Shown here piece after piece: positions 3,219 through 41,123 of a stretch of 64,000 bases of DNA. This DNA is from Patescibacteria group bacterium (lineage in GTDB: Bacteria; Patescibacteriota; Patescibacteriia; Patescibacteriales; UBA12465). Numbering within the stretch: position 1 is the stretch's first letter; each line of letters begins with the position of its first letter. The position numbers and the translations under genes are program-made. The notes beneath the pieces were generated by a model. The model had not been told where the DNA came from and ran no database searches. It was given only the letters and a program-made list of their open reading frames with translations. Where the stretch lies: the NCBI GenBank assembly GCA_041671365.1, contig JBAZBP010000002.1, positions 1,052 through 65,051 on the forward strand, given 5' to 3'.

Positions 3219-3237
3219 AAATAACTAAATAGAGCAA

Positions 3238-3274: not shown

Positions 3275-3286
3275 TAAACTTAGGTC

Positions 3287-3430: not shown

Positions 3431-3435
3431 CTCTT

Positions 3436-3481: not shown

Positions 3482-3531
3482 GTTATCCTTGTTAAGAGAA
3501 CTTCTAATTAGAACTAGATAATAACAAATAT

Positions 3532-4479: not shown

Positions 4480-4503
4480 CTCGTTCTTTGATAGATTAAT
4501 AGT

Positions 4504-4628
4504 ATTGACCTCAATTTAATACTATTTTCCCAAAAGCCTTTTTTATAGGGTTTATATTTGCCGTTCGAAATGGGCAGTTCTGCTTAACGACAAATTAGCT
4601 TTTGGGCTAGTTTTAAGTTGAGGTCAAT
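4504..4628. repeat. Nested inverted repeats downstream of rep (candidate single-strand origin)
   Basis: Outer arms 4504-4519 and 4613-4628 (attgacctcaatttaa vs ttaagttgaggtcaat, one mismatch). Inner arms 4529-4537 cccaaaagc and 4598-4606 gcttttggg. Confidence 0.5.
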
Positions 4629-4651
4629 CAGGACTGTCCTTTTTGATATTT

Positions 4652-5195: not shown

Positions 5196-5267
5196 AAAAT
5201 TTTCCTGCTTATAATTTTTGTAAATTATCTTAATGTATATTTAAATTATACCATAAAACTAACTAAT

Positions 5268-6776: not shown

Positions 6777-6837
6777 GGCTTTAACACCCTATAACAGGTT
6801 AGCAACCTGCCGCTTTCAGCCGCTCAGCCACCTCTCC
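6747..6837 (-). tRNA. tRNA-Ser (anticodon GCU), long variable arm
   Basis: Hand-folded: acceptor GGAGAGG/CTTCTCC, anticodon loop TTGCTAA, variable arm TATAGGGTGTTAAAGCCCTATC, T arm GAGGG-TTCGAAT-CCCTC. Confidence 0.9.
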
Positions 6838-7563: not shown

Positions 7564-9600
7564 ATGGTTAACATAAACTCTTCAATTATCGAGCTACACC
7601 GCGTTGGTAAAACTACCTCTACTCTTCTAAAAAAGCTGGGTCTCAACACTGTTCATGACCTGCTTTTTTATTTTCCCTTTCGTTATGACGATTTTTCCAA
7701 TCAAATAAAAATTGCCGAAATAAAAGCAAACACCACTGTTAATATTAGTGGCACGATTGAACTGATTCAAAACAAAAAAAGCGCCAGGCGACGAATGTTC
7801 GTGACCGAGGCGCTCATCAGCGATGACAGTGACTCGTTGAAAGTTATCTGGTTTAATCAACCATTTTTGACTAGAACTTATCACGTCGGCGATCAGATTT
7901 CTGTTTCCGGGCGAGTAAGTGAAAATTATGGACAGTTAACGATGATTTCACCGGTCAGTGAAAAAATTTATTCCCAGGAATTAATTCATACTAGCGGTTT
8001 AGTACCTAATTATCATTTAACCTCAAATTTAACTCAAAAACAAATTCGCTTTTTAGTTAAAGAGATAATCGCCTTGGCCGATCAAGAATCCGACTGGCTA
8101 CCGGCCGAAATAAAAATCCGCCTCAAACTTTTAGACTTAAAGATTGCGCTGCGCCAAATTCATTTTCCTAAAAATAACGCGGAAATTAGTGACGCCCAGA
8201 AACGCTTAGGCTTCACCGAATTGTTCTTACGCCAACTAAAAGCGCAAATGATTAAACGGGAATTAAAAACCAGGCGCTCGCTGCCGATTAAATTTCAAGA
8301 ATTAAAAACAAAAAAATTCGTCTCCTCCCTACCCTTTAAATTAACCGACGACCAGAAAAAATCCGCCTGGGAAATTTTACAAGACCTGACTAAAACGGAA
8401 CCCATGAGCCGATTACTAGAGGGTGATGTCGGTAGCGGTAAAACTTTAGTGGTAGTTCTGGCTCTGCTCAATGTCGCTTTGAATAAAAAACAAGCAGTGT
8501 TAATGGTACCCACCGAAATTTTAGCCCGACAACATTTTGACTCCATCTCTAAAATATTAAACGACTATAATTTTAGAATCTCCTTGTTAACTCACAGTCA
8601 TAAAGATCCGAACGCGACAAACGCCGATATTATTATCGGCACCCAGGCCTTAATTCAGGATAAAATTAAATTCGATAATCTGGCTTTGGCTGTGGTAGAC
8701 GAACAGCATCGTTTTGGCGTGAGCCAACGTCAAAAAATTATAGATTTTAACAGCGCTCTCGACCTCACTCCGCATTTCCTATCTTTAACGGCCACGCCAA
8801 TTCCTCGCTCTTTAGCCTTAACTATCTATGGCGATTTAGATCTGTCTATTATTAAGCAACAGCCGGTCGGCCGTCGACCGATTATCACAAAAATCATCAC
8901 CGAAAGTAAGCGCCAAGCCGCCTATAATTTTATTCGCTCTGAAATTAAAGCCGGGCGGCAAGCTTTTGTAATCTGTCCCCTGATCGATATTTCCGACCGA
9001 CTCGGCGTTAAGTCCGTTAAAGTTGAACATAAAAAATTAGATCAAGAAATTTTTCCGGAATTAAAAGTCGGCTTGCTGCATGGCCGATTAAAAGCGGCCG
9101 AAAAAGAACAGGTGATGGCTGATTTTCTCACCAATAAAATTCAAATTTTAGTAGCGACATCCGTTATCGAAGTCGGGGTGGATGTTCCTAATTCCACTAT
9201 TATGATTATCGAGGGGGCGGAACGCTTCGGCCTTGCTCAACTGCATCAATTCCGCGGACGCGTCGGACGCAGCGACCGACAATCTTATTGTTTTTTATTT
9301 CCCTCCAATGAAGAATTAAGCAACGAAAAAACTATTACCCGCCTTGAGGCTTTAACTAAATATAACAATGGTTTCGAACTCGCAAAAATTGATTTAAAAT
9401 TACGCGGTGCCGGGGAAATATATGGAACCGGGCAAAGCGGTTTCCCGGAACTACAAATTGCCTCATTGTTTGATTATGACTTAATTAAAAAAGCGCAAGC
9501 CGAAGCCAGCGCTCTAATTATTTCCGATCCAGAATTAAAAAAATATCCACTCTTAAAAGATAAACTGGGAGAATGGGAAAAAACTATTCATTTAGAATAA
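7564..9600 (+). CDS. recG: ATP-dependent DNA helicase RecG
   Basis: 678 aa with Walker A DVGSGKT, DEQHRFG, TATPIPRS and QLHQFRGRVGR, plus an N-terminal wedge-domain length. Confidence 0.93.
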   Translation: MVNINSSIIELHRVGKTTSTLLKKLGLNTVHDLLFYFPFRYDDFSNQIKIAEIKANTTVNISGTIELIQNKKSARRRMFVTEALISDDSDSLKVIWFNQPFLTRTYHVGDQISVSGRVSENYGQLTMISPVSEKIYSQELIHTSGLVPNYHLTSNLTQKQIRFLVKEIIALADQESDWLPAEIKIRLKLLDLKIALRQIHFPKNNAEISDAQKRLGFTELFLRQLKAQMIKRELKTRRSLPIKFQELKTKKFVSSLPFKLTDDQKKSAWEILQDLTKTEPMSRLLEGDVGSGKTLVVVLALLNVALNKKQAVLMVPTEILARQHFDSISKILNDYNFRISLLTHSHKDPNATNADIIIGTQALIQDKIKFDNLALAVVDEQHRFGVSQRQKIIDFNSALDLTPHFLSLTATPIPRSLALTIYGDLDLSIIKQQPVGRRPIITKIITESKRQAAYNFIRSEIKAGRQAFVICPLIDISDRLGVKSVKVEHKKLDQEIFPELKVGLLHGRLKAAEKEQVMADFLTNKIQILVATSVIEVGVDVPNSTIMIIEGAERFGLAQLHQFRGRVGRSDRQSYCFLFPSNEELSNEKTITRLEALTKYNNGFELAKIDLKLRGAGEIYGTGQSGFPELQIASLFDYDLIKKAQAEASALIISDPELKKYPLLKDKLGEWEKTIHLE

Positions 9601-12735: not shown

Positions 12736-14634
12736 TTAAGTCAAAGGTTCGGCTTGCTGACTCGCGTCAAACTCTTTTTTCGCTTCCTCCAGTTCCAAAA
12801 GCTGACGCGGATCAGAAGTAATAAGTTGATCTTCGGTATAAGAAGCTACTACCTTCATGGCCACGTGTTTATTGCCGGCGAAAAAAATTCCTTCTCCGAC
12901 GCCGCATTCCAAAAGTAAATATTTTTCTCCTTCAGTTAATAAAAAGGTTTTTTGAATTAAATCAATCGAAGCCGTCGACTGTTTTAAAAGAATTTGTAAC
13001 GATGAATTAGTAACTATCGCTTGTCCGTAGGGTGAAGTTAAAAAATCGTTAACGTCTTGCGTGATAGTTGTTACTCCTAAATAATACTTACGGCAACGTT
13101 TAACCAGGGCAAAAATAAATTTGGCGCTATCCTCGTGTTGCATCATCCACCAGGCCTCATCAATTACTAAAATCCTTTTTTTCATTTCACTTCGAACGAC
13201 GTTCCAGATATAATTAACAATCGTATAAATAGCAATCGGCCGCAACTCATCTTCCAGGTCGCGGACCGAAAAACATACTAACTGATTGCTCATTTCCACA
13301 TTACTCTGATTATTCAACAATCCGGCAAAGGTTCCTTCCGTATATTTACGCAAACGCAAAGATAGATCCGCCCCCCCTTCCATTCCTTCGAGAATTTGCT
13401 GTAAATCCGACATGACCGGCGCTTCAATTTTCGATAAATCAGAATCGGGAGTAATATCTTTTTTAGCATAAGTTTCCAGCAGCGCCCGATCAACAATCGA
13501 ATCCTCGTCATAGCTTAAAGTCCCCAGCATTAACCGAACCAGACCCTTTAAAGTAATAACCGCGCTCCTGATAATATCTTTCGGTTTAGATTCGCCGCCA
13601 ATCGAACGCGGCAAATCGAAGGGATTAATTTTATTTTCGGAAGATAGAGAAATATTAATATAAGTGCCGCCGACCGCTTCGGCCAGATGCTTATATTCAT
13701 ATTCCGGATCAATAATAATAACGTCCGTCCCGAGCATGAGCGAACGCAGAACTTCCAGCTTAATCGCGTAACTTTTGCCGGCGCCGGAAGTCGCGAAAAC
13801 TACCGAATTGGCGTTCTGAAGACTGAAACGGTCAAACAAAATCAAACTATTGTTGTGGCGGTTGATTCCGTATAAAATTCCCCGATCGCTGGTCAGTTCG
13901 CTGGAAATAAAAGGAAAAGAAGAAGCAATCGGCGAAGAATTCATATTAAAAGTAATATAAAGCTCGTCGTCGCCCAAAGGCAAAGTTGAATTAAAACCCT
14001 GTTCCGCCTGATAATAAACTCGGCGGGAATAAACCAAGCGCGAACCGAAAATATCTTCCATTTGGTCGGACAAACGATCTAGATTCTCTTGGTTATTCGC
14101 ATATAAAGTAACATACAGGGCAAATTGAAAAAATTTTTCCGTCCCCTGCGTCAAAGCGTCACGCAGATATTCGATATCGCGCAAAGCGGTTTCTCTAAGC
14201 GGGTCGCGCGCCGCTCCTTTTTCGGCGTCAGAAACAATTTGCGCTTCCAAAGCACCGACTTTGTTTTTTAACTGTTTTAAAATTATGGCGCTTTTCACCG
14301 GGTAAAAAAACATGGAAACATCAAAAGTCACGTTCAAATTAATAACCGGCGCAAACCAGCCAACCGAAATATAACGCGGATAACTAATGACAAAAATCGT
14401 TCGTAAAAATTGATTTCCTAAATGTAAAAAATTAGATTCTATTTTTAGGCTGGCCGGAGCAATAATGTCGCGGACCGACAAAACCCCCCGGCGAAAAGCC
14501 TTCTCCTCCTCGATTATTTCCCGCGTTAAATTCGGATCGGCTTCAATCGGCGGCTGTCCGGACTGGGAGCCGAAAGTAACCGGGGTATTAAGAGAAATTT
14601 TTTTCGTTTGTTCTGGTTTATTAAAATCTATCAT
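12736..14634 (-). CDS. virB4: VirB4/TrbE-family type IV secretion ATPase
   Basis: 632 aa with Walker A FATSGAGKSY and Walker B RILVIDEAWWMM (the DEAW signature typical of VirB4). Confidence 0.88.
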   Translation of the reverse strand: MIDFNKPEQTKKISLNTPVTFGSQSGQPPIEADPNLTREIIEEEKAFRRGVLSVRDIIAPASLKIESNFLHLGNQFLRTIFVISYPRYISVGWFAPVINLNVTFDVSMFFYPVKSAIILKQLKNKVGALEAQIVSDAEKGAARDPLRETALRDIEYLRDALTQGTEKFFQFALYVTLYANNQENLDRLSDQMEDIFGSRLVYSRRVYYQAEQGFNSTLPLGDDELYITFNMNSSPIASSFPFISSELTSDRGILYGINRHNNSLILFDRFSLQNANSVVFATSGAGKSYAIKLEVLRSLMLGTDVIIIDPEYEYKHLAEAVGGTYINISLSSENKINPFDLPRSIGGESKPKDIIRSAVITLKGLVRLMLGTLSYDEDSIVDRALLETYAKKDITPDSDLSKIEAPVMSDLQQILEGMEGGADLSLRLRKYTEGTFAGLLNNQSNVEMSNQLVCFSVRDLEDELRPIAIYTIVNYIWNVVRSEMKKRILVIDEAWWMMQHEDSAKFIFALVKRCRKYYLGVTTITQDVNDFLTSPYGQAIVTNSSLQILLKQSTASIDLIQKTFLLTEGEKYLLLECGVGEGIFFAGNKHVAMKVVASYTEDQLITSDPRQLLELEEAKKEFDASQQAEPLT

Positions 14635-21630: not shown

Positions 21631-22323
21631 TTACTTGGGTGAAAATAATTTTTTGATAGCATCCAGGGCGACCGAAGCTATACTAATGGGATTGGTGACG
21701 GCATTAACTAACATCGCCACTAGAACAAAAAAGAAAAAAATAAGAGCTAGAGCTAAAGTATCAAGCAGGGCTAATAACATTCCCTCGACGAGACCGGTCA
21801 TTTTGTTTACCTTTCCTTCTCCGCCGAACGCCGGCGGTAAACTGCTGACCCATTCCTCGCCTAATTTACAAAACAAATTATTTCCTAAAACCATCCCTAG
21901 AAAAACATGAATATTTATCCAAATCAGCGTTAAACCAAAGCTATCAATTATATTCAACCAGCACTGCTGTAAAAAACTACCGGTAGCTTTATTAGCGGCG
22001 GCGGTTACAACCTTAGGCAGAGCGCCAGCTATTCCCGCTTCTTTGGTTTTTTTCTCCGTTTTAGCCGCTTGGACGGTGGCTTTAAAACCATGGGGCTGAG
22101 CAGAATTATTATTTTTCGCTCCGCCGCGCTGAGCCTCTTTTAACGCCCCGACTTTTTCCGCACTACTAGAATTATTCTGATTTAATAACTGCTCATCGGG
22201 ATTCATACCGTTTAAAATAAACCTTTTCTTTATGTTAAAATTATACACTAAAATAAACAGAAAGGCAAAATAGAAAAACACTTTTTTAAGATAATAAAAA
22301 AACCTACAAGTCCCGAGTTTCAA
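21631..22323 (-). CDS. Membrane protein, unknown function; the true start is probably ATG 22206
   Basis: 230-aa track ORF. Its first 39 codons overlap the terminator hairpin at 22296-22357, so MNPDEQLL... (191 aa) is the likelier product. It has C-terminal TM helices. Confidence 0.55.
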   Translation of the reverse strand: MKLGTCRFFYYLKKVFFYFAFLFILVYNFNIKKRFILNGMNPDEQLLNQNNSSSAEKVGALKEAQRGGAKNNNSAQPHGFKATVQAAKTEKKTKEAGIAGALPKVVTAAANKATGSFLQQCWLNIIDSFGLTLIWINIHVFLGMVLGNNLFCKLGEEWVSSLPPAFGGEGKVNKMTGLVEGMLLALLDTLALALIFFFFVLVAMLVNAVTNPISIASVALDAIKKLFSPK

Positions 22324-22357
22324 GCGCTCATAACGCTTGAGACTGGGGATTGTAGGA
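22296..22357 (-). terminator. Intrinsic terminator after the T9SS-CTD gene
   Basis: Long imperfect hairpin cctacaagtcccgagtttcaagcg...cgcttgagactggggattgtagg, followed on the minus strand by a U7 run (A7 at 22296-22302). Confidence 0.7.
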
Positions 22358-22376
22358 TTAAGCGGCCGAGAGAATT

Positions 22377-23846
22377 TTATTTCAGCACGGTCATTTTTTT
22401 AGTAGCGGAGAAACTATAATTATCTACACTTATTCGATAGAAATAGGTTCCGCTCGCAAGTTGGCCGGCACTAACTTTTTGGTTATACATGCCGGCTTTG
22501 AGCTCTTCGTTTATCGGGATGGAGACAACCCGACCGAAGAGATCATAAATTTTTAGAGTCACGAATCCATCTTTAGGAACAGAGAAACTGATGGTCGTGC
22601 TGGGATTGAAGGGGTTCGGATAGTTTTGAGATAACGAAAAATCTTGAGGAATATTCGGCTTTTCGGTCTTGACGGCGGTAACGCCATCGATTTTGTATTT
22701 CCAGATCCGGCTGCTTTTATAGTCATTAACAAATCCGGCTAATAACAGATAGTTTTCTTTGTCCCATTTACCCACACCAAGCCATGAAATGGTATATTGC
22801 GCTCTTATTATATTTGTTCTAATTTTCCATAAAATCTCACCCTGATTACCAAATGCTATCGCGATCGGCTCTATCCAGCCGGGACTATAACCTGGATCGT
22901 TCATGTCTTGACCGGAAGCCGTTGAAGATCCAATAACTATGCAGCCGCCGGTCGGTAATTCGACAATATCCGATACATACATTTCTATATAATTAATCGG
23001 AGAGTAGTCACCATCCCAAGTGGTTGACCAGATTTTATTTCCGGAGGTGTCCATTTTTTCGATATACCAAAGGGCGGTCGGAAAATTATAGGAATATACT
23101 CTTGCGGCGTAATACATATTTGCTCCTTGAAGACAAATTTGCCCATTCTGATGATTTAAATAACTTTTAGACCAGATTTTATTTCCGTTTAAGTCATATT
23201 TAACAACGTTTGTACTGCCATAACCGGCCTGGATATAGTTTGCAGTATAAAGATTACTCTCGTTAACCGCCCAAACATTATAATCTTCTGCCAGTTCAAT
23301 CGAAAATGATCGATTTAAGGTTAGGTCATTATTATAAACATAAACTTGTGAAAGATTAGTGTGGTCAATTAAGCCAATTTGATCTCCCACAAAATAATTA
23401 TTCGAATTTTTTTTGATATTTAGGGTACCGATCCAATTCGTCGGCACATCTACTTTCTTTAATAGCTCACCTTGCTGACTATATTTACTTATAGTTTTTT
23501 TAGTGGCCACAAGAAACCTGTCTTCATTATTTAGATCAATGATATTATTATATATTAACCCGCGAGTCATGCTAGGTAAAGAATCTAAATAATTTTTTTT
23601 CCAATTTTTTAGACCATTCGAGTTAAAAGAATAAATAGACTTCCATTCTTCAAAGTAGCTGTTTCTACATATTGCAATATAGTTATTTTGTTTAGTAACG
23701 GATAATGAAAAAATTTCTTGTGGTGCTCCTGAACTATCATCCATAACCATCTCGGAAACTAATTCCGGCACAACTTGTCCCATAGTTATAGGACCTAGAA
23801 AAAATAACAGACAAACTGTCATGACATGAGCATATAGATTTTTCAT
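22377..23846 (-). CDS. Secreted repeat (beta-propeller-like) protein with a C-terminal T9SS type A sorting domain
   Basis: 489 aa with a signal peptide. The C-terminal SQNYPNPFNPSTTISFSVPKDGFVTLKIYDLFGRVV...LASGTYFYRISVDNYSFSATKKMTVLK matches the Por_Secre_tail consensus. Confidence 0.85.
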   Translation of the reverse strand: MKNLYAHVMTVCLLFFLGPITMGQVVPELVSEMVMDDSSGAPQEIFSLSVTKQNNYIAICRNSYFEEWKSIYSFNSNGLKNWKKNYLDSLPSMTRGLIYNNIIDLNNEDRFLVATKKTISKYSQQGELLKKVDVPTNWIGTLNIKKNSNNYFVGDQIGLIDHTNLSQVYVYNNDLTLNRSFSIELAEDYNVWAVNESNLYTANYIQAGYGSTNVVKYDLNGNKIWSKSYLNHQNGQICLQGANMYYAARVYSYNFPTALWYIEKMDTSGNKIWSTTWDGDYSPINYIEMYVSDIVELPTGGCIVIGSSTASGQDMNDPGYSPGWIEPIAIAFGNQGEILWKIRTNIIRAQYTISWLGVGKWDKENYLLLAGFVNDYKSSRIWKYKIDGVTAVKTEKPNIPQDFSLSQNYPNPFNPSTTISFSVPKDGFVTLKIYDLFGRVVSIPINEELKAGMYNQKVSAGQLASGTYFYRISVDNYSFSATKKMTVLK

Positions 23847-23904
23847 GATTTACTCCATTGATTGATTAAATTGTTAAGGTTCATTATTTATTAATTTAAT
23901 CAAC

Positions 23905-23932
23905 TATATAACAAATAATGGTATTCCGTCAA
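23905..23932 (-). promoter_or_regulatory. Candidate sigma70-type promoter for the T9SS-CTD gene
   Basis: Minus strand reads TTGACG, a 16-nt spacer, then TATATA. GGAG lies 8 nt before the ATG. Confidence 0.4.
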
Positions 23933-23950: not shown

Positions 23951-23976
23951 AAGACTGTCGAGCAATCAACAGTCTT
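23951..23976 (-). terminator. Hairpin after the giant gene
   Basis: aagactgt / acagtctt, an 8-bp stem with a weak T tract. Confidence 0.35.
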
Positions 23977-24008: not shown

Positions 24009-27000
24009 CTACTGACTTCCAGTAAAACCCCAGTTGTCAGTAGTGGTAGCGTGCACTGCCGTATCCGGTATTTTTAAATAATTATGATAAAAAATATGCG
24101 GAGATGAGGTGGCCGGGGCATTATCTTGATTAGTAATTGTTTGTATCTTACCGTCTCCCCAATCAATGTCAATACTTTTTAGGGGTTGCTGTTCCGGATC
24201 GACAATACTATTAAATTCTAAACGGTACCAACCCTTGGACGTAGCTTTATTCCCGGTAATCGGCGTAACGTTATTGCCATTATTATCATTAGAGTATAAA
24301 TGAAAATTAAAAATAGTAGGATAGACGGAACAAAAGGCTTTTAAACATGAGTTTGAATCAACACAGTTAGGCCGAACATTATTCGGCAGTCCTGTATCAG
24401 AAGTAATACAATGCGGAGGCGTAAAACTATAATCGGCGCCGTTATTGCCTTGTAGAAATATATTCTTTAATATATTTTTATAAGGAAGTAGTGATGGAGT
24501 ATTTATTAATGGGTAAGCTCTTGTCCAAAGCGGCTGGCACGTGCCCAATCCGGTGCCACAACTCTGAGCAATAAAAAAGTCAGAGTCAAAGGAGGTCATG
24601 GTAGCGCTGCTTGAGGCAACACAATAAGTATTAGGTCCATTTGGCTCAACCGTACAAGATCCAATAAGACCACAACTTTTGCTGTTGCTGCAACCATAAG
24701 GTCTACCTTGATTAGATCCATAAGATCCAAAAGGAAAAGTATTAATATCTGATTCATACTTCATTAAATTATAAGGTGTAGCAAAAAAATGAAAAAATGG
24801 GGGAGTAGAGGTAGGATAAGAGTCAATATTTTTAACTCTTTCAACCCAGGCCTTATTATTACCCATATCATCAACTACTTGAACAGATTTGTCCTGATAA
24901 TTCAATTTAAAATTTTTAAGTAACGTTAAATCAGTTTCAGCGGACGGCAACGGATTTTTAGTATAATCATAAATGCGAATGGGTTGTAACCCGTCACTAA
25001 CAGTCTCACCTAAAGTTTTTTCTACGTTATTTAAACCGTCATAAACATACCAACCATTAGAGCTTTGACTAGGCAAAGTAAGGGTAAGCCAAAAATTTAA
25101 ACTAACGTGTTCATTAAAATATTCATAGTCTTTTGTGAGTTGAGCATCTTGTAAGTTTAAACTTTTTATCCCGACCGAAGTAAAATCAAATGTGCGCTGT
25201 AGACTGGTACTATGGGTAGCTTCAACGGTAACCTTTGAATTTGTCTTTGGTATACACCATTCAAAATAACAACAATTATTATCATTTGTACAATTAAACT
25301 TATAATAGAAATTAAAATAATTAGAATCACCCTGACAACTTGCAAGATCTTGTGGTCTCCCATTTAAATTCGTATTATCCCCTTCTGGATCCCAGCATTT
25401 TCCACCCTCTTGTTTTGCATAATATAAATAAGCCTCTCTCTTCTCCACCAAGTCAAAATTACCGCTCACTTCCGTGGCGTAACTAAGAGGAGTAGGACCA
25501 TGATAACCATTAGACTTAAAATTATTTGTCGGAACATTGTCCATCGGATACCACAGCAAACAAACGCTGGGATTGGCCGGATCATGCTCTAAGCAATAAC
25601 CTTCTAGGCCTGACGTAATTGTATTCTTATTTTTACTGACGCAAGTTAGGCTATCGCCCGTCGGATATAAACGGCACTCCGACGCAACATATTTATCATT
25701 AGAAATTTTTAAAACAGGCTCAATCTTTATATCGTCAAAATAAACCGGACTAGTACCGGGCGCACCATCATGACTAACTTTAACTTGAATACCGGCAATA
25801 TTCGTCAAAGTAAACCGATGTATTTCTCTGGTCCAATCCAGTCCGGAAATGGATGAAAACGTTTTAATCGGAGCACCGGAAGCGTTAGTAATCGTAACTT
25901 GCGCTTCCGCACCATTAGATTTTTTTGTATTAACTAAATAGTTAATAAAATAGTCCCCGGAAGTGATAGCTAAATCTGAGGAAACTCCTAATGTATATTC
26001 TTTTCCTAGCGGCACCATTAAATAAGTCTTGCCGTGCGCCGGGTGGTCGGTCCCGTATGAGTCGGCAACATCGGGATTATCAATTAGACAACGATCACTA
26101 TTATTTGACGAAGTGCAAGGACAAGGCTTTGTGGCACAAGTTGTTAGGTCTGGTTTATCTTCAAAATCGCCATTCGAAACCGTCAGTTTTCGGCCCACCA
26201 CCTCCATCTGCCCCAAATTATAATTATTATAAAGAGAATAACCGGTAGCATTACCATCGACCGCCGTCGTCGTGGTTCCCGTCAGCGGAGTCGTATAATT
26301 ATTACATTCACCCTGATTGTCTAAACTATTGCATTCGTTATAGGCATAGCAAGTTTTTTTCTTGGTTATTGGATCCTGAGTATAAGAAGTGCAGCTCAAC
26401 CAGCGCGAACAAACCCGATTTGGACTGACTTTAATAACCTCATTGGCAGTGCAAGAATTGCCGCTGCAAGAACTCGGAACAAGCGGATTGGGATCATTAG
26501 TCGCCCGGTTATTAGTCGCGTAAGCGTCATAGTCTAAGCCGGTTAAACCGCTCGCCCCGCTAACGCCGCGTTCATTAAATAAAACACAACCATTGTTAAA
26601 TTGGGCTTGTTTGGTGCAACTGGTTTTATCTATCTTACTCTGCAACTGATAATCAACAGCTAGTTCTCTAACCTCAATCGTGCGACCGATAGCTCCGCCG
26701 GATAAACGCGTCGAAGTGGCTTCTAAAGAATCAAAAATAACCGGAACATTAGTCGTCGTAGCAGCGGCCAAACTGGTCGTTGCCGCGCCAAAATTATTAT
26801 CACTTAATAATTGCCGAACAGACACCGTAAAATCTAATATAACTCCGCTGCCGCTGCCGTTCGTAACATTTAAACTATAAAGTTTATAGGGCTCTAAGGC
26901 GATAACTTGCTGCGTGGGTGTTAGCGTGGACGACCATGCTCCAAGACTAACGTCTCCCCAACCCTCGGTTCCTTCAGTTGTCGTTGTAAAACTGGGATTG

Positions 27001-30000
27001 TTAACCAGATTAGGATTAAAACGAGTTACCGGATCAATATATTCCGTACAACCGGAAGAAGCAACATCGCAAATACCGGCATCAGTACTCGGAATCGGGA
27101 CGCCACCACCTCCCAGACCGATAGTTTTAAAGACTGAATAAGCGCACTCATGATCGGTTTTATCAAGAATACAAGAACCGGCTCCGGTACCGCAGTCACT
27201 GTCGCTTAAACAAATCGGTCCGTCAACCTCCGCCGAGCCACTGATAGATTTGTCTTTATTCAAATCACAACGCTTAGCCGGTATTTTATACCATTTTTTC
27301 GAGCCGACCGAGGCATTATTAGCGGCTCGATAAACACAAACATTATTTCCCGGATCTTTAAAATAATTAACACTATTATTATCCTTATTCGTCCAGGTTT
27401 CACAGCCGACGTCGCCGGAGTTACATAAAATTGTCTCGTATTGATTCGGATTATTTAATTTAAAAACATCAGAAAATCCGATTAGGCTGTTTCCTCCCTG
27501 GCCTTGGCCTAAGCGGCTGCAGCCAAGATTGACGGCGTTACACTGTTTCTTGGCGTCGTAGACGGCATATAAAGCACTATCGCCGGGAACCATTACACAA
27601 TTAGGATCCGCCACATTGCAAGTCGTCGTCGCTACCCCGCCCTCCCAAAAACCGGATCCGTAAGGCGAATAATTTTTTGTATCAATCATCTGCTCGCAGC
27701 CGACCGCCGAATCGGAACATAATTTAGTAAATTTATGTAAATTATTTTTTAGATTATTCCGATCGGTGTATTGAGCGCAACCTAAATTATAGTCGGCGCC
27801 TTGATAATTGCCGGCCAAATCATAATAACAGGAATCCGAAATTTGACTGGAATTTTTAATTAAATAATAACGGTCGCTAATTTCCGACAAAACAAAATCA
27901 TCTAAATAAAATTCTCCGCCGCCGTTAATCACCAATTCTTCATTATTTCCGACCGACTGATCAAGATCGGTTAAATTCGCCCGATAAATATTCCAGCCGC
28001 TCCCGCCTTTAATTACAATCGGACTAAAATCGGTTTTCGTCCCGGTATCCTTGTTCCTAAAAGAAACAGTTAAAGTAGTGTCGGTCGGCGCAAGACCTAG
28101 AAATCTTAAAGTATAAGCCGAACCTTGATTAACCAGTCCGCTAACGCTTGAAGTTGCTTCTCCCGAAACGCAGGTGTTATGTAAAGAATGGCCATCTTTA
28201 TTATTAGAAATAGGACTGATGCTAAAACAAGTACTGGAGGACCAGCCGTTTAAACCGCTTTCGAAATTGTCAAAAGAAATAACCCGCACATTACTGCCGG
28301 TGCTGCCGTTATATTCGCGGCAACCGTTTTCACTGGCGCGGCAAGTCTGTCCTTCTCCGGGAATTGCGCTATAAAAACAAGATTCGGAAGTTGCATCCCA
28401 CGTACCGCCGTTTAAACAAACAGTATTTCCACTAGAATCGATATTTTTATCAGTCATTCGATAGGTATGACAATTATCGGAGCAGGTAATCGTCTGGGAA
28501 CTTAAAAGGTAGGCTACCGTTCCGGAGGCATTATAAAATTCTCGACAGTCGGGATTAAAAAGTGGATCATTCACCGGTTTATTATAAATATCCGCGGTAC
28601 AAAGTGCAGGGTTATAACCGGCAGTAGTCGCCGGCGTTCCGCCGGCATCTTTTTTCAAAGAATACGCCTGTAACTGATAACCGCTCGCCTGCCCTTCCCA
28701 GGCATAAAAACTGGCACATTGGGTCGTACTCGGTTTTATACACTGTTTTAGAGAAGTATAATATTCTTTCTGTTCCCCTCCTTGAGCGAGCGAGTCTAAA
28801 TTAGTAAATTCGCTGCAACCGGCCGCCTCCGCGCTGCACTTAGTAGCGGTAGCGGGAATTATATTTTCCGTCTCCGCGGAATTAAAATAACTGCCCTTAG
28901 AAATATAGACGTCATAGCCGAGACATTCTGCCGGACAATAATCATTACTTGCGACTTTAGCCGTGACAACAAAATAGTCTTTAATGTTTGTATAGGAATC
29001 ACAGCCGACCTCGTCCTGGTTGCACTTCCGAGCGAAAGCCGAACAGACTGCCGGCGCATCCGATTTTAAGGTATAATCCTTAACCGCACTACTGACGTTA
29101 TTATAGCAAGTTTTTTCTAGATAATTCGGCAATAATTTTTCATAAATTCTCGCCGAACCGGATGTTGTTTGGCCATAAGCCGTATAACCGGTATCCCAGT
29201 CGCTCGCTTCAAATTTTAAATTTTTAACATAAAAAGTAATTCCCGCCGAACCAAGAATGACAAAATTCGGATCATTGAAACTGCTGTCAGCCGAACGAGT
29301 CACATTTAAGTGCTGCCATGAACCCATAACGGCAGTGGTCATATCATAATTCGAACCGCTCCCAACCGTCAAACTAACACTGCCGGCATTCTCTAAATAA
29401 ACATCGGCGCTCATCGTATAAAATTGGCCGGTAACAATTTGAAAATTAGCGGGCAAAAGAGAGTTTTCCGGATTAGAAGAAACACCACCGGCCGCAGAAG
29501 CGTCTACTGCTAATTTTAAAACTTTACCGTCTCCGCTTACCGGATCCTGGACAATGGATGCCTCTTCTATGTTAATCAATGGCCAATCATTAAGCTTCGT
29601 TCCGCTATTAGAAACACTACCCAATTCCTCATTATTAAAATCGGAGTCCATCACCAAATTATTACCCCAAGTGGATTTGACGCGCATCAGCTCCGTACAA
29701 CCATTATCAGGACTGCTGCAAGTACCCAAGCTTTTGTTCAAATATAAACTATTAGACGTACTCCAACTAACTGTTCCGGTCGAAGTAGCATAAATACCGG
29801 ATAAAGAATACTGTCGGCAACCGGCGTTGCTAGAATTACAGTTATTATAGTTTAAAGTATTTTGCAAATAAGCCACCGCTTGTCCATTTACGCCGGTAAA
29901 CGACTGGCAGGTATTGTTAACCGGTTCGCAAGAATCCGTATTAAAATTCCACGTTCTTTTTTCTCCATTACAATACCCATAAACTTCACAACTGCCATCA

Positions 30001-31880
30001 GGTTTTTCTTTAATACAGGTTTGCCCGTCGGCGCAATAATTATCCGCCCTAAGAATATTTAAGGTGCTGGGAGTGGAAGAAACGGAGGCGTTTCCTTCTA
30101 TTCCCTGCGTAACCGTCGTACTTAAGAGTTGCGCGCCAAACCCCTCTTTTTGGCAATAATTAAGCGGTGCCTTTAAAACCCAGTTAGGATCGACCAATCC
30201 TTGGCACCAGGTCGTGTCAGATCCAAAATCTTGACTAAAATTAGTATACTGATCAAGAGGATTAAAGCAGGAAACTAAATCATTTAAAGTTGCCCGATGA
30301 GGCGAGACCGGGTTGTTGGCGATTGAGGCTACCTCAGCCCAACCGATCGGTAAAATCCGATACTTAATAAGAATACTAATATTTCTTAAAGAATACTCGC
30401 TGTTATAAGCGTCTCCAGAATCACTGTTAGTTACTTGCCAGTCGCCGTGTAAGGAGCCGTCATTGATAGCCTCGATTACAGTTTTCTTTTCGGAAATCGC
30501 CTGCATAAACGGACTATCAATAACACAGTTATCCGGCCCGGGATTTTTTGAATCTTGACAAACCGCCAAAGACGATAAAATATCATAATCCGCCTGCGTA
30601 CCAAAATTAGGTTTAAGCAAGGCGGTTGTAACCTGCTTCAAGGCTGTAGCTCCTCGACCGCTATTAGGATCGCTGGAATAACCGGAACCGCCGCCGACGG
30701 CATTATTACCGTTATCCTGCTTTCCCAAACTCTGTACTAATTTATTAAAGGCGGATACGGCTAATTGATTTAAAAAGACATTGGCGGCATCCACAAAAAC
30801 ATCGGTAGTAATTTTTCCGATATTGCCGGCTTTAATAGCGTCCGCCTCTTGTAGGGTTCTCTCTGCCGTTCCCGGAGGAGCTGCGGAATCACCGGCAATA
30901 TTAGTAACATTCAACCATCCCTTATTGGCAATGAATCCGGTTTCAGAATTTTTTACATTAACTAAGGCTTTATTAGATAAATCAGTTTTTGCCAAAACAG
31001 AAATACCGAGATCGTTGGCCTGAGGGTCAAAATATTGAGCCAGATTATTTAAATAATCGCCCGAACGCAAATCAGCCAATTTTTTATTAATATCCGTGTC
31101 CCAGGTTGTAATCATTTTTGACAGAGTACAGTTAGGCGGGGCTGGACGAGTTTGCTGAACAAGTCCTAAACCTATTTGGACCTTAGCCATTAAAGATGAA
31201 GGACTGCAAACATTAAAAGACGGAGTAGTCTCTTTCATGGCGCCTGCGACATCATTAGTAGTACCGGTAACTGCACAGGAAGTGTTATTATTGGCACAAT
31301 TACGGAAACAGCTTTGAATAGCTGTGGAATCCTGTCCACTGTTTTGGAGATTATACCCATAGTCTCCGGTATAATTATTTTGATCTTGACTATTCGATAA
31401 TTGAGCACTGCAAGAAGCATTACAATCTGTTAATTCTTTATCACAAGACTTTTGGTCTACAGACCGATTTAAATTATTGACAAAACTTTCTACGAACGTT
31501 CCCATCGCTTCATCACCAATTTGATTTAAATAAGCTCCAATATTTTGAGTAACAAACAAAGGTTTTTGGCCGGAACCACCAGAACCGATATAATTAGCGG
31601 TATCATAAGCAATTTTATTAAGAGCCGTACTCAATGTCCGCTGAAAAGCGATTGCCCCGGCTTTCTTCCATAAAAAATCGGCACCATCCTTAACCTTCGT
31701 CCATACCCAATCGGCGTAACCAACAACATCGGCCACAACTGTAGTCGCTAATTGCGCGTGAACCGGTTTAGGCGGTGCAGCGACAATCACTAATAACAAA
31801 CAAAAAATCAAGAAAAAACTTTTAATTTTTTGACTGAATCTTAATTTTTTATTTTTTTCCGGCTCGATTAAATTTCTCAT
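24009..31880 (-). CDS. Giant (2623 aa) Cys-rich secreted/surface protein with CBM-like modules and a PKD-like C-terminus
   Basis: Single uninterrupted ORF with an N-terminal signal/anchor. Four N-x-x-F-E/D-type module starts are present: NLVMDSDFNNEE, SFDNFESGLNGW, NLVNNPSFTTTTEGTEGW and VSNGDFEDKP. The C-terminal IDIDWGDGKIQTI...HIFYHNY is PKD-like. Confidence 0.85.
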   Translation of the reverse strand: MRNLIEPEKNKKLRFSQKIKSFFLIFCLLLVIVAAPPKPVHAQLATTVVADVVGYADWVWTKVKDGADFLWKKAGAIAFQRTLSTALNKIAYDTANYIGSGGSGQKPLFVTQNIGAYLNQIGDEAMGTFVESFVNNLNRSVDQKSCDKELTDCNASCSAQLSNSQDQNNYTGDYGYNLQNSGQDSTAIQSCFRNCANNNTSCAVTGTTNDVAGAMKETTPSFNVCSPSSLMAKVQIGLGLVQQTRPAPPNCTLSKMITTWDTDINKKLADLRSGDYLNNLAQYFDPQANDLGISVLAKTDLSNKALVNVKNSETGFIANKGWLNVTNIAGDSAAPPGTAERTLQEADAIKAGNIGKITTDVFVDAANVFLNQLAVSAFNKLVQSLGKQDNGNNAVGGGSGYSSDPNSGRGATALKQVTTALLKPNFGTQADYDILSSLAVCQDSKNPGPDNCVIDSPFMQAISEKKTVIEAINDGSLHGDWQVTNSDSGDAYNSEYSLRNISILIKYRILPIGWAEVASIANNPVSPHRATLNDLVSCFNPLDQYTNFSQDFGSDTTWCQGLVDPNWVLKAPLNYCQKEGFGAQLLSTTVTQGIEGNASVSSTPSTLNILRADNYCADGQTCIKEKPDGSCEVYGYCNGEKRTWNFNTDSCEPVNNTCQSFTGVNGQAVAYLQNTLNYNNCNSSNAGCRQYSLSGIYATSTGTVSWSTSNSLYLNKSLGTCSSPDNGCTELMRVKSTWGNNLVMDSDFNNEELGSVSNSGTKLNDWPLINIEEASIVQDPVSGDGKVLKLAVDASAAGGVSSNPENSLLPANFQIVTGQFYTMSADVYLENAGSVSLTVGSGSNYDMTTAVMGSWQHLNVTRSADSSFNDPNFVILGSAGITFYVKNLKFEASDWDTGYTAYGQTTSGSARIYEKLLPNYLEKTCYNNVSSAVKDYTLKSDAPAVCSAFARKCNQDEVGCDSYTNIKDYFVVTAKVASNDYCPAECLGYDVYISKGSYFNSAETENIIPATATKCSAEAAGCSEFTNLDSLAQGGEQKEYYTSLKQCIKPSTTQCASFYAWEGQASGYQLQAYSLKKDAGGTPATTAGYNPALCTADIYNKPVNDPLFNPDCREFYNASGTVAYLLSSQTITCSDNCHTYRMTDKNIDSSGNTVCLNGGTWDATSESCFYSAIPGEGQTCRASENGCREYNGSTGSNVRVISFDNFESGLNGWSSSTCFSISPISNNKDGHSLHNTCVSGEATSSVSGLVNQGSAYTLRFLGLAPTDTTLTVSFRNKDTGTKTDFSPIVIKGGSGWNIYRANLTDLDQSVGNNEELVINGGGEFYLDDFVLSEISDRYYLIKNSSQISDSCYYDLAGNYQGADYNLGCAQYTDRNNLKNNLHKFTKLCSDSAVGCEQMIDTKNYSPYGSGFWEGGVATTTCNVADPNCVMVPGDSALYAVYDAKKQCNAVNLGCSRLGQGQGGNSLIGFSDVFKLNNPNQYETILCNSGDVGCETWTNKDNNSVNYFKDPGNNVCVYRAANNASVGSKKWYKIPAKRCDLNKDKSISGSAEVDGPICLSDSDCGTGAGSCILDKTDHECAYSVFKTIGLGGGGVPIPSTDAGICDVASSGCTEYIDPVTRFNPNLVNNPSFTTTTEGTEGWGDVSLGAWSSTLTPTQQVIALEPYKLYSLNVTNGSGSGVILDFTVSVRQLLSDNNFGAATTSLAAATTTNVPVIFDSLEATSTRLSGGAIGRTIEVRELAVDYQLQSKIDKTSCTKQAQFNNGCVLFNERGVSGASGLTGLDYDAYATNNRATNDPNPLVPSSCSGNSCTANEVIKVSPNRVCSRWLSCTSYTQDPITKKKTCYAYNECNSLDNQGECNNYTTPLTGTTTTAVDGNATGYSLYNNYNLGQMEVVGRKLTVSNGDFEDKPDLTTCATKPCPCTSSNNSDRCLIDNPDVADSYGTDHPAHGKTYLMVPLGKEYTLGVSSDLAITSGDYFINYLVNTKKSNGAEAQVTITNASGAPIKTFSSISGLDWTREIHRFTLTNIAGIQVKVSHDGAPGTSPVYFDDIKIEPVLKISNDKYVASECRLYPTGDSLTCVSKNKNTITSGLEGYCLEHDPANPSVCLLWYPMDNVPTNNFKSNGYHGPTPLSYATEVSGNFDLVEKREAYLYYAKQEGGKCWDPEGDNTNLNGRPQDLASCQGDSNYFNFYYKFNCTNDNNCCYFEWCIPKTNSKVTVEATHSTSLQRTFDFTSVGIKSLNLQDAQLTKDYEYFNEHVSLNFWLTLTLPSQSSNGWYVYDGLNNVEKTLGETVSDGLQPIRIYDYTKNPLPSAETDLTLLKNFKLNYQDKSVQVVDDMGNNKAWVERVKNIDSYPTSTPPFFHFFATPYNLMKYESDINTFPFGSYGSNQGRPYGCSNSKSCGLIGSCTVEPNGPNTYCVASSSATMTSFDSDFFIAQSCGTGLGTCQPLWTRAYPLINTPSLLPYKNILKNIFLQGNNGADYSFTPPHCITSDTGLPNNVRPNCVDSNSCLKAFCSVYPTIFNFHLYSNDNNGNNVTPITGNKATSKGWYRLEFNSIVDPEQQPLKSIDIDWGDGKIQTITNQDNAPATSSPHIFYHNYLKIPDTAVHATTTDNWGFTGSQ

Positions 31881-37920: not shown

Positions 37921-38466
37921 ATGGAAACGATTCGCATTCACGGCCGCGGCGGGCAAGGAGTGGTAACGGCCGCCGAGTTAATCGCTATCGCCGCCTTTTA
38001 TGATGGACACGAAGCCCAGGCTTTTCCTAATTTCGGCGTAGAAAGAAGCGGCGCCCCAATCCAATCTTTCGCGCGAATTGACAGTCGACCGATTATTACC
38101 CGGGAACAAGTATATGAACCAACAGTGTTAATTATTCAAGACAGCACCCTAATCGACACGGTCGATGTTTTTAACGGAATCAATAAAAATACTAAAATAA
38201 TTATAAACTCCCCTAAAAATCGCTGGCCAAATCTAAAACTAAAATCTAAAAATTTATATTTTTCGCCGGCTACGGAAATTGCTCTAAAAATTTTAGGAAG
38301 GAATATCGTTAATACCGTTATCTTGGGCGCTGTAGTTAAATATACCGGCCTAATCTCTTTAGAATCGTTAAAAAAAGCCGTAAGCGAAAAATTTAAAGAC
38401 AAGGGAGAAGAAGTAATTAAAAAAAATATAGAAGCGATAAAAATGATTTATGAAAAAAATAGCTAA
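37921..38466 (+). CDS. porG: 2-oxoacid (pyruvate):ferredoxin oxidoreductase gamma subunit
   Basis: 181 aa with IRIHGRGGQGVVTAAELIA. Confidence 0.85.
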   Translation: METIRIHGRGGQGVVTAAELIAIAAFYDGHEAQAFPNFGVERSGAPIQSFARIDSRPIITREQVYEPTVLIIQDSTLIDTVDVFNGINKNTKIIINSPKNRWPNLKLKSKNLYFSPATEIALKILGRNIVNTVILGAVVKYTGLISLESLKKAVSEKFKDKGEEVIKKNIEAIKMIYEKNS

Positions 38467-38734
38467 AAATATCGGCCTGATAACTCAACCCGGAACCAGT
38501 TTAAAAAACAAAACCGGCCCGTGGCGGACCCAAAAACCTCTAACCGATCTTAATGTCTGTACCGGCTGTTCGCTCTGCGCCAAAATTTGTCCGGAAGGCT
38601 GTATCCTCATGAAACCGAATTTAAAATTTAACGCTAAACTAAAACCGGAAACTGATTATGATTATTGCAAAGGCTGCGCTTTATGCGCGCACGAATGTCC
38701 GGTAAAAGCGATAAAAATGGTTGAAGATTATTAG
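38450..38734 (+). CDS. porD: 2-oxoacid:ferredoxin oxidoreductase delta subunit (2x[4Fe-4S])
   Basis: 94 aa with CTGCSLCAKICP and CKGCALCAHECP. Confidence 0.85.
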   Translation: MKKIAKNIGLITQPGTSLKNKTGPWRTQKPLTDLNVCTGCSLCAKICPEGCILMKPNLKFNAKLKPETDYDYCKGCALCAHECPVKAIKMVEDY

Positions 38735-38742
38735 AAACAATT

Positions 38743-39933
38743 ATGTCTAAAAACAACCAACAAATATTAGAAGGATCACGAGCAATCGCTTTAACGATTA
38801 AAAATATCGCTCCGGCCGTTATTTCCGCCTACCCGATTACTCCCCAGACGCATATCGTTGAAGATCTGGCAGAGTTTAAAGCGAACAGCCAAACTAGTTA
38901 TGAATACGTTCGCGCCGAAAGCGAATTTGCCGCCGCCTCGATTGTTCTGGGCGCCAGCGCCACTGGCGTTCGCGTTTATAGCGCGACCAGTTCTCAAGGT
39001 CTCCTGCTGATGACAGAGGTAATTTATAATATTGCCGGACTGCGGCTGCCGGTCGTTATTACTTGCGCCAACCGAGCGATTTCTAGTCCGATAAATATTT
39101 GGAACGATCACAGCGACGTGATGTCTATTCGTGATGCCGGCTGGATTCAACTATTCGCCACCGATAACCAAGAAGCCATTAACCAACATATTTTAGCCTA
39201 TAAACTAGCCGAGAGTTTAAAAATTCCGGTAATGATTAACGTCGACGGTTATATTTTAACCCATTCTTATGAACCGGTAACCATCCCCGACGTTAAATTA
39301 ATTAAAAAATATTTACCGAACTACCGACCGATTAGCGGTACTTATCTTAACCCGGCCGATCCTGTGACTCTTGGCGCTTTTTTCACGCCAAGGCATTATA
39401 TGGAAACTCGGGAAGTCTTACATAATGATTTAATCAATAGTCTCAAGGTTATAAACCAAGAATATAAACTACTTAATAAAGTATTAGGAAACGCTAACCA
39501 TTCTCGCGAAAACAAAAACTCATCTCTTATTGATAATGGCTTAATAGAATATTATGGCCCAAAAAATCCCCAAACCGTTCTAATCGCCCTGGGCTCAATG
39601 GTCGGAACCGTCCGCGAGGCCATAAAAGATTTAAAAAATGTCGGAGTATTAAAAATAAAAGTCTATCGCCCTTTTCCGGGAGAGGAAATAGTAAAAATAA
39701 TCAAATCTGTTAAAAATGTCGCTGTTCTGGAAAAAGCTATAAGTTTAGGATCGTCCGGGGCGCTATATTCCGACTTATCCGCCGCGCTCGTTGCCGGAAA
39801 AATTAAAAATAATCTTAATCTTAAAAATTATATTGTCGGTTTGGGCGGACGAGATATTACGCAAAAGATGATCATAACCATAGTCAAAGATGCCCCGAAA
39901 AAAAATAATTATCTAAAATTTATCGGAAAGTAA
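38743..39933 (+). CDS. porA: 2-oxoacid:ferredoxin oxidoreductase alpha subunit
   Basis: 396 aa with the AYPITPQT motif and a typical length. Confidence 0.88.
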   Translation: MSKNNQQILEGSRAIALTIKNIAPAVISAYPITPQTHIVEDLAEFKANSQTSYEYVRAESEFAAASIVLGASATGVRVYSATSSQGLLLMTEVIYNIAGLRLPVVITCANRAISSPINIWNDHSDVMSIRDAGWIQLFATDNQEAINQHILAYKLAESLKIPVMINVDGYILTHSYEPVTIPDVKLIKKYLPNYRPISGTYLNPADPVTLGAFFTPRHYMETREVLHNDLINSLKVINQEYKLLNKVLGNANHSRENKNSSLIDNGLIEYYGPKNPQTVLIALGSMVGTVREAIKDLKNVGVLKIKVYRPFPGEEIVKIIKSVKNVAVLEKAISLGSSGALYSDLSAALVAGKIKNNLNLKNYIVGLGGRDITQKMIITIVKDAPKKNNYLKFIGK

Positions 39934-39934
39934 T

Positions 39935-41113: not shown

Positions 41114-41123
41114 TTAACTAAAC

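Follow-up and report, generated by a model that had tools for sequence, protein, structure and literature searches.

The stretch of DNA analysed here, referred to as the window, comprises 64,000 nucleotides (nt) of a Patescibacteria group bacterium (assembly GCA_041671365.1, contig JBAZBP010000002.1, positions 1,052 to 65,051). Between the gene of a giant secreted or surface protein and a block of genes resembling a type IV secretion system (T4SS), its reverse strand carries a gene predicted to encode a protein of 489 amino acids (aa), which consists of a Sec signal peptide, a seven-bladed β-propeller, a flexible linker and a C-terminal domain (CTD) of the type known from type IX secretion systems (T9SS) (Table 1). 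The identical 489-aa protein is also called in the Logan assembly of sequencing run SRR18595301; the Joint Genome Institute (JGI) call, P0001, begins at M22 and is 468 aa long, thus lacking the signal peptide. The start at M1 is preferred over M22 because of the N-termini of homologs and a conserved Shine-Dalgarno sequence. The signal peptide was called heuristically, from its n, h and c regions, a G|Q cleavage motif and conservation within the family.

By sequence criteria, the tail of this protein belongs among the T9SS type A CTDs, which bears out the genuine T9SS C-terminal sorting domain that an earlier note on this DNA had described. It matches PF18962 (Por_Secre_tail) with 38.5 bits and an E value of 1.5e-9 (gathering cutoff 27) over aa 409–484 of 489 (nt 22380–22622), and TIGR04183 with 35 bits (cutoff 23). 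It also forms the extreme C-terminus of the protein, the alignment reaching the last residue, K489. All of the motifs quoted in that note (QNYPNPFNPSTTI, LKIYDLFGR, ASGTYFYR and KKMTVLK) are present. Across 13 CTDs of the family, the opening PNPF, the central G..V and the closing G.Y.Y...KKM motifs are invariant and align with the Por CTD of Protein Data Bank (PDB) chain 8glj_D, the sole PDB sequence match of the CTD profile. A hidden Markov model (HMM) of the CTD, made from 120 database matches, identified a single CTD-bearing open reading frame (ORF) in the window.

The predicted structure agrees with this arrangement. An AlphaFold model of the full protein, generated from a 19-sequence alignment (predicted local distance difference test score, pLDDT, 81; predicted template modelling score, pTM, 0.73), comprises an N-terminal helix (aa 2–21), an all-β region (aa 28–385), a disordered linker (aa 393–403) and a β-sandwich (aa 405–487). 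Foldseek matches of this model in the PDB were propellers (CylK, PorZ and the PLL2/PHL lectins), with E values down to 3e-10. The N-terminal ~400 aa gave no Pfam match above cutoff, PF06739 and PF13360 included; PF06739 was seen only in distant relatives, and the family member P0003 scored 26.5 bits against PQQ_2, slightly below the cutoff of 27.6. Modelled alone, the CTD folds into an Ig-like β-sandwich (pLDDT 83). A fold search with this model returned solved T9SS CTDs (8qb1_A and 8gl8_D, template modelling (TM) score ~0.6) among its matches, but none with an E value below 0.001; because this search was non-specific, the family assignment of the CTD rests on its sequence and not on its fold.

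Table 1. Features of the propeller-CTD gene, of its surroundings and of related loci. Coordinates are those of the window unless a locus name precedes them.
Feature	Coordinates	Strand	Details and basis
Propeller-CTD coding sequence, 489 aa	22377..23846	(-)	ORF list and sequence; stop codon 22377-22379
Predicted Sec type I signal peptide, aa 1-23 (MKNLYAHVMTVCLLFFLGPITMG|Q), Gln at +1	23778..23846	(-)	AlphaFold helix 2-21 and small|Q site of the family
Predicted 7-bladed β-propeller, aa 24-392, KYD-x-x-GN-x-x-W repeats	22671..23777	(-)	AlphaFold model, all-β over aa 28-385
Flexible linker, aa 393-403	22638..22670	(-)	pLDDT <50 at residues 393-403
T9SS type A CTD (Por_Secre_tail), aa 404-489, Ig-like β-sandwich	22380..22637	(-)	PF18962, TIGR04183, CTD-only model
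Predicted intrinsic terminator of the CTD gene	22296..22356	(-)	Hairpin 22303-22356 and U7 at 22296-22302
Conserved 5' leader, ~55 nt, with GGAG Shine-Dalgarno sequence (23853-23856)	23847..23902	(-)	Near-identical in L094 (L094:~640-698)
Promoter-like site, TTGACG-18 nt-TATAGT	23903..23932	(-)	Consensus scan, 10/12 matches; TTGACG at 23932-23927
Terminator hairpin 3' of the giant-gene stop, AGACTGT...ACAGTCT and T run	23952..23975	(-)	Sequence; compensatory changes in L094
Giant secreted/surface protein gene, 2623 aa, upstream slot boundary	24009..31880	(-)	ORF; no Pfam family
TM230 small membrane protein gene (Logan: 191 aa), downstream slot boundary, first gene of the T4SS-like block	21631..22323	(-)	ORF
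T4SS_pilin-domain genes	39935-41113; 42002-43465 (also NlpC/P60); 43437-44957
Pyruvate:ferredoxin oxidoreductase subunit genes	37921-38466; 38743-39933; 41124-42005
Partner genes in other lineages	L002:8276-9853; L004:506-2095; L008:8325-9887; L007:3600-5765; L092:6105-7565	(-)

The gene content of the window is that of a chromosome of the Patescibacteria, or Candidate Phyla Radiation (CPR), as judged from its predicted proteins. Pfam scans of its 40 larger ORFs identified RpoB, RpoC, LepA, MurJ, RecJ, RecG, RadA, LeuRS, KsgA and subunits of pyruvate:ferredoxin oxidoreductase, and its LeuRS, held by NCBI under the name Patescibacteria group bacterium, has Falkowbacteria, Parcubacteria and Moranbacteria as nearest named relatives (61–66% identity). 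The T4SS set is of the Gram-positive type, with VirB4/TraG-like, PrgI (VirB3-like) and VirB6-like proteins and three T4SS_pilin genes. None of the 40 ORFs belongs to the T9SS machinery (SprA/Sov, PorV, PorU, PorK-N) or to an outer-membrane family, which agrees with the CPR-like, T9SS-free surroundings described previously. Patescibacteria have been treated as monoderms (bioRxiv 10.1101/2021.05.31.446380; PMC12857230), their Gram-positive-type T4SS is described as essential for epibiotic growth (PMC12857230), and the T9SS is given as unique to the Fibrobacteres-Chlorobi-Bacteroidetes (FCB) superphylum (PMC12421860).

A chimeric assembly, in which a fragment of an FCB genome had been mis-joined into a CPR contig, had been offered as one explanation for such a tail in such a chromosome, and its sole basis is this taxonomic oddity. 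The Logan assembly, made with a different assembler, gives the same protein with the same neighbours and the same joins. Moreover, the closest homolog of the protein, P0002 (57% identity), is encoded at a locus from a different sequencing run, L094, in which the C-terminus of a giant protein (55% identity over 183 aa) lies directly upstream of the P0002 gene; the DNA of L094 and of the window is 70% identical over 1.8 kb. This divergent relative shares the junctions on both sides of the gene, including the intergenic region with its hairpin and promoter and the beginning of the terminator. Since both the Logan assembly and L094 share these junctions, a chimera is excluded; there is also no compositional break, CPR contigs between 190 and 822 kb long carry homologs, and we assign a mis-join a next to negligible probability.

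The composition of the gene is likewise native. Relative to the window, its GC content and its GC content at third codon positions (GC3) have z-scores of -0.81 and -0.42, the log-likelihood of its synonymous codons has a z-score of -0.08, and the local tetranucleotide distance ranges from -1.2 to +0.4. The comparison of codon usage that had been recommended therefore gave no foreign signal. Looking for target-site duplications or inverted repeats on either side of the gene, we encountered only short repeats attributable to chance. Because GC, GC3, codon use and tetranucleotides all appear native, a recent transfer is rejected, and of the horizontal acquisition raised in the earlier note only an old event is retained. 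Taken together, these comparisons show what is to all appearances a native, inherited Patescibacteria gene.

The gene is furthermore delimited by signals of its own. Its terminator hairpin has a predicted free energy of -30.6 kcal/mol (z = -5.6, with none of 200 shuffled sequences equally stable) and is followed by a U7 run, in accordance with the strong terminator previously ascribed to it; the beginning of the same hairpin was found 3' of the ortholog in L094. Upstream, the window and L094 share 90% identity in the intergenic stretch between the stop codon of the giant gene and the ATG, whereas coding DNA is only ~70% identical. The hairpin that follows the giant gene is preserved in L094 by compensatory changes (stem AGACTAC...GTAGTCT). 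Both promoter hexamers are kept there as well (TTGACA/TATAGT), and it is this conservation that speaks for the promoter, because the scan matched the level of shuffled sequences (12 promoter-like sites versus 11.0 +/- 3.3 expected). Of the promoter proposed before, TTGACG is thus retained, and TATATA at a spacing of 16 nt gives way to TATAGT at 18 nt, which fits better. The near-identical leader may represent a regulatory RNA or a protein-binding site; compared with Rfam, leader and terminator gave only sub-threshold noise. With its own terminator and a conserved footprint of promoter, leader and Shine-Dalgarno sequence, the description of a stand-alone gene is upheld, and the conclusion that the gene constitutes a predicted transcription unit of its own stands.

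To define the family to which the protein belongs, a propeller-only profile was searched exhaustively against 1.84 billion representatives; this took the place of a word-indexed propeller search, which gave only P0001 and P0002 owing to the limit of its prefilter. The exhaustive search yielded 165 proteins below 1e-30. Against the family profile A2, P0001 itself scores 428 bits over positions 1–366. A CTD is found at the end of 36 of the 37 matches of up to 700 aa that align in a single stretch. Flanks are readable for eight close members, every one of which has a CPR-like context, and two of them belong to named Patescibacteria. P0003 is located on an 822-kb contig, with which a second assembly agrees, in the GTDB species representative 'Patescibacteria group bacterium isolate SO_2017_GW3_20'; a scan of named genomes with a 4-sequence profile returned one locus, that of the same organism. 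CPR-like contexts were also found for P0005, P0009, P0010, P0012 (on a 190-kb contig) and P0066, and a CTD protein with another head occurs in a Nomurabacteria context. The lineage tentatively assigned to P0077, from a contig of only 2.8 kb, is presumably actinomycetotal and would be monoderm.

The distant propeller relatives P0047 and P0033 (22–26% identity) and the CTD-only match P0011 lie in FCB-type loci. In L097, seven genes matching PF18962 (one of them weakly) stand in a row together with an outer-membrane protein (OMP) β-barrel, and L098 carries CTD-tagged enzymes of glycoside hydrolase families GH2 and GH3 along with a sigma-54 activator. The CPR-like contexts of the close members, set against the FCB-type loci of the distant ones, suggest an origin in the FCB group followed by diversification within the CPR. 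These findings point to an old capture from FCB to CPR, with a gene that now appears to be under selection; the direction of the capture is inferred. The earlier note had held that orthologs with this CTD, if routinely present in the same lineage, would make the gene vertical and common. This largely holds: full-length homologs with this CTD recur in Patescibacteria contexts, but in a patchy rather than a routine manner.

Both ends of the protein carry predicted FCB-type signals, and both have been kept in the CPR. In Bacteroidetes, cleavage by signal peptidase I typically exposes a glutamine, a Q-rule that has been described as Bacteroidetes-specific (PMC5837995). A small residue followed by Q is present at the predicted cleavage site of 32 of 35 family members. 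When one crude detector was applied throughout, Q at +1 was found in 59% of the family and in 50% of the CTD-only matches, a set that is presumably mostly of FCB origin, versus 8.7% of 184 predicted secreted proteins from CPR loci. As a separate observation, the giant protein encoded in the window (31751–31880) has a predicted signal peptide that ends in ...VHA|Q; it thereby shares the Gln at +1 with the CTD family.

The CTD is the better conserved of the two modules. Among the eight members in CPR contexts, mean identity is 57% for the CTD versus 27% for the propeller, the CTD being the higher in 28/28 pairs, and between the window protein and P0002 the corresponding values are 89% and 50%. 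In 69 of 86 columns, the consensus of the CPR CTDs and that of the non-CPR CTDs share their majority residue, with conservation profiles correlated at r = 0.87, an agreement inflated by the fact that the non-CPR CTDs had been picked by their similarity to the window protein. This higher conservation argues that the tail is functional in the CPR rather than decaying, and shows the CTD to be under apparent purifying selection in the CPR family.

A tail held at a cross-phylum type A consensus, evolving more slowly than the propeller in every pair and retained in all but one of 37 members, in a family that has also kept the Q+1 site, could also act as a tag that mimics the T9SS cargo of an FCB host, with which the epibiont would latch onto the secretion or attachment machinery of that host or be handled by it. 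The location of the gene in a host-contact locus would suit such a role. However, no pairing between CPR and FCB bacteria is known to have been described; in addition, T9SS cargo meets its translocon from the periplasmic side, out of reach for a protein that arrives from outside, and the conservation can equally be explained by constraints of the fold or by a receptor encoded in the CPR. We regard mimicry of this kind as decidedly unlikely.

The surroundings of the gene were compared with 80 related loci (L010–L089), found with the neighbouring VirB6-like protein (36–68% identity). Their common gene order is KsgA, a TSP3-repeat protein, the giant protein, a variable slot, TM230, the VirB6-like protein, p358, p538, PrgI and VirB4, and the contents of the slot were read in the 47 loci in which both borders are visible. 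In about half of these, the giant gene runs directly into the TM230 gene with nothing in between, so the previous observation that the gene interrupts a T4SS-like locus holds. About a dozen slots contain small ORFs of 115–165 aa, one or two per locus, some of which are homologous to one another (for example in L016, L017, L019 and L027, at 24–35% identity). A few hold larger genes: L052 has 7 kb of extra genes, and the slots of L036 and L048 have ORFs that, judged by eye, resemble aminoacyl-tRNA synthetases.

In 3 of the 47 slots, the first gene after the giant gene, on the same strand, encodes a signal peptide, a β-propeller and a CTD. The products from L064 (424 aa) and L067 (405 aa) combine a Ycf48/PSII_BNR propeller (85.9 and 70.3 bits, respectively) with PF18962 (52.9 and 48.0 bits), and in that from L048 (408 aa) another kind of head is joined to a PF18962 match of 57.5 bits. 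All three resemble the window protein in the CTD only, with 30–52% identity, compared with a mean of 57% for FCB CTDs. We had considered a single ancestral slot gene with swapped heads, and ruled it out: as these CTDs are no closer to that of the window than FCB CTDs are, the genes appear to be independent. These are the only three CTD genes in the ~0.95 Mb of related loci, and because they are so rare, their recurrence at the slot is suggestive; for two independent slot events outside the window lineage we obtained a rough p of ~0.006 (41 slot positions among ~549 genes, dereplicated), a modest statistic. As an observation on these loci in its own right, rates of divergence are very uneven: the VirB4-like ATPase (window 12736–14634) is 63–93% identical across L010–L089 (77–93% in most loci), and the VirB6-like, p358, p538 and giant proteins are mostly 26–70% identical.

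The slot data bear on the possibility that the gene arrived recently from FCB and persists as neutral or decaying baggage. Both the CTD and the signal peptide with Q+1 count as hallmarks of FCB, the gene has been inserted into what is otherwise the common order of the locus, and genes of this kind are patchy among the related loci, all of which would fit such an arrival. The native GC, codon and tetranucleotide composition does not fit it, nor do the intact ORF and the promoter, leader and terminator held in common with a relative at 70% DNA identity, the CPR-like contexts of all eight close members with readable flanks, or the fact that the CTD is the best conserved part. A recent transfer is thus very improbable, and the data continue to favour an old capture.

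In other lineages the gene has a different neighbour. A divergently transcribed partner gene precedes the family gene in six of them (P0003, P0005, P0009, P0010, P0012 and P0066). Where complete, the partner protein has ~490–720 aa, mostly ~520, and comprises an N-terminal transmembrane helix, conserved regions of Ig-like appearance and a Cys-rich C-terminus. Its motifs include GQxW, PGDTQ, AEIETDNG and LAWSDPC, as well as D-x-D-x-D-G-Y and DC-x-D...PG at the C-terminus. The partners are 28–45% identical to each other and gave no match to Pfam, NCBIfam or PDB sequences. In the window and in L094, the family gene instead follows the giant gene; in both arrangements a large, membrane-anchored surface protein is encoded next to the propeller-CTD gene. 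One CPR-like contig, L092 (GCA_964357525.1), carries two CTD genes on the forward strand, 4009–4911(+) and 8001–9440(+), which lie 3 kb apart. A divergent gene precedes each of them; one of these divergent genes has a 486-aa product that is a partner homolog, and the other, of 637 aa, had no match in tblastn with partner queries.

The partner raises the possibility that the CTD is a true sorting signal, recognised by a receptor or processing enzyme encoded in the CPR itself, which would cleave the protein or fix it covalently to the wall or S-layer in a manner similar to attachment by PorU. Its adjacent and divergent position in six independent lineages makes the partner a candidate receptor, and the strong purifying selection on the CTD is in keeping with such a function. 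The partner shows no peptidase or sortase signature, however, nor any detectable homolog of known function, and it is absent from the window (BLASTP and HMM searches) and from all 80 T4SS-linked loci, so that the CTD genes of these loci would be without the machinery unless it is encoded elsewhere. We therefore consider a CPR-encoded sorting machinery unlikely, and prefer to see in the CTD a docking module that operates independently of a T9SS.

Several known systems provide points of comparison. The window protein resembles T9SS type A cargo (PF18962/TIGR04183), examples of which are the CTD chains 8glj_D and 8gl8_D of the Flavobacterium johnsoniae SprA-PorV complex and the mirolase CTD 8qb1. 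A passenger lies between its Sec signal peptide, followed by Gln in position +1, and a predicted C-terminal β-sandwich of ~80 aa, and its tail shares the PNPF...G..V...G.Y.Y...KKM motifs and scores above the curated cutoffs. Unlike that cargo, it is encoded in a chromosome of the reportedly monoderm Patescibacteria, with no T9SS genes in view and with about one CTD gene per locus rather than the arrays typical of FCB. The propeller-CTD proteins of Ignavibacteria, Chlorobi and Bacteroidota (P0014, P0033, P0047 and P0062) have the same two modules and a length of ~400–500 aa; their propellers, which are SBBP/PQQ-like or Ycf48/BNR-like, are 22–26% identical to that of the window protein, and their CTDs 48–63%. 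Whereas these FCB genes stand among many CTD genes, the CPR clade has a partner of its own or occupies the slot between giant gene and T4SS block. Porphyromonas gingivalis PorZ (PDB 5m11), a surface component of the T9SS and the second-best structural match (E 2e-9), also has a propeller followed by a CTD-type sandwich, but comprises two propellers in ~750–780 aa as opposed to one propeller in 489 aa; at 11% identity and a TM-score of 0.31–0.44, there is no evidence of orthology, nor of a T9SS that the window protein could serve.

The small β-sandwich fold is also that of the FlgD Ig-like domain (PF13860) and of sandwiches in Gram-positive extracellular enzymes (3wnn and 5axg), which implies that this fold can work on monoderm surfaces without a T9SS. 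At the sequence level the window domain differs from these in belonging to the T9SS CTD family, and matches of PF13860 to the CTDs of the CPR family were sub-threshold. Finally, the VirB4/TraG-like, PrgI and VirB6-like proteins and the VirB2-like pilins of the window and of the 80 loci resemble the Gram-positive-type T4SS of Patescibacteria, a locus described by Wang et al. 2023 and Quinonero-Coronel et al. 2025, as summarised in PMC12857230.

The overall explanation that we consider best, and hold with moderate confidence, is that a native propeller-CTD gene, captured long ago from FCB, serves in T9SS-independent docking or adhesion at the cell surface. Its identity and history are highly probable; for the mechanism of docking or retention, the chances seem to us evenly balanced. 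Among the explanations raised in the earlier note, that of a repurposed domain would thus be the favoured one. We propose that a unit of propeller and CTD with a Q+1 signal peptide was captured long ago from an FCB-group bacterium and then diversified in the CPR. The protein would be exported by Sec across the single membrane. With no T9SS machinery seen in the window and a monoderm envelope reported, the protein would not qualify as T9SS cargo, and its CTD could not be an outer-membrane export signal. The CTD could instead act as a compact β-sandwich module for docking or retention that keeps the propeller, a head that probably binds ligands or glycans, at the cell surface. The docking target might be the giant protein in the window, the ~520-aa membrane-anchored partner in other lineages, or the wall. 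As an accessory adhesin, the protein would then help the T4SS and the pilins in attaching to the host, a role that appears most likely because the slot adjoins the T4SS block thought to mediate epibiotic host contact.

Several points weigh against this explanation. The absence of a T9SS is established for the 64 kb of the window only and not for the whole genome. In the CTD-only fold search, FlgD and the accessory sandwiches of Gram-positive glycosidases ranked as high as the solved T9SS CTDs, and the agreement of the CTD consensus across phyla is subject to the inflation noted above. The slot is a general synteny breakpoint that also holds unrelated genes; its occupancy by CTD genes could consequently be that of a hot spot for insertions, with no functional coupling behind it. 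The proposed docking to the giant protein or to the partner is read solely from the adjacency of the genes, and the partner is missing from the window and its related loci. Moreover, the full type A consensus has been kept even though a plain sandwich would not obviously need it, which fits a specific receptor better than generic docking.

Two other parts of the window lie outside the subject of the propeller-CTD gene. The region 2277–6837 is a small integrated element adjoining a tRNA. It encodes a Rep-like protein (3532–4479; REP_ORF2-G2P, 61.8 bits, with a weak RepSA match) and a large serine recombinase (5268–6776), at whose 3' end the gene overlaps tRNA-Ser(GCT) (6746–6837); the GC content is 0.31–0.32 in parts of 1–6 kb, compared with a window mean of ~0.40. 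In the region 37921–44957, the T4SS_pilin genes are interleaved with those of the pyruvate:ferredoxin oxidoreductase subunits. The last two pilin genes encode the same N-terminal ~46 aa (MKTTRLLQSILIFSLLLLARQASANCMWTT...), a pattern that points to gene conversion or to a tandem duplication of recent date.

The CTD annotation as such is already known, being present in public records. Our literature search for CTDs or the T9SS in the CPR found no paper on such genes, and the dedicated paper on the Patescibacteria T4SS mentions neither a CTD-propeller gene nor the giant protein nor a variable slot. What appears to be new is the picture of the family, the selection on its CTD, the retained Q-rule, the partner gene and the recurrent slot next to the giant gene in T4SS loci.

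As a diagnostic marker, the T9SS CTD serves to indicate Bacteroidota/FCB secretion and diderm biology, and a family of the monoderm Patescibacteria carries it. This family would offer a clean example of gene capture from FCB to CPR in which both end-signals, the Q+1 and the CTD, were kept. The propeller-CTD protein, its partner and the giant protein are testable candidates for a surface or adhesion apparatus of CPR epibionts. It is rather unlikely that the CTD is a working recognition tag in cells without an outer membrane or a T9SS, addressed to a CPR receptor or anchor such as the partner or the giant protein, or acting as a mimic of FCB-host cargo. If this were true, host-contact loci of monoderm, ultra-small bacteria would have put to new use a sorting signal regarded as confined to a single diderm superphylum.

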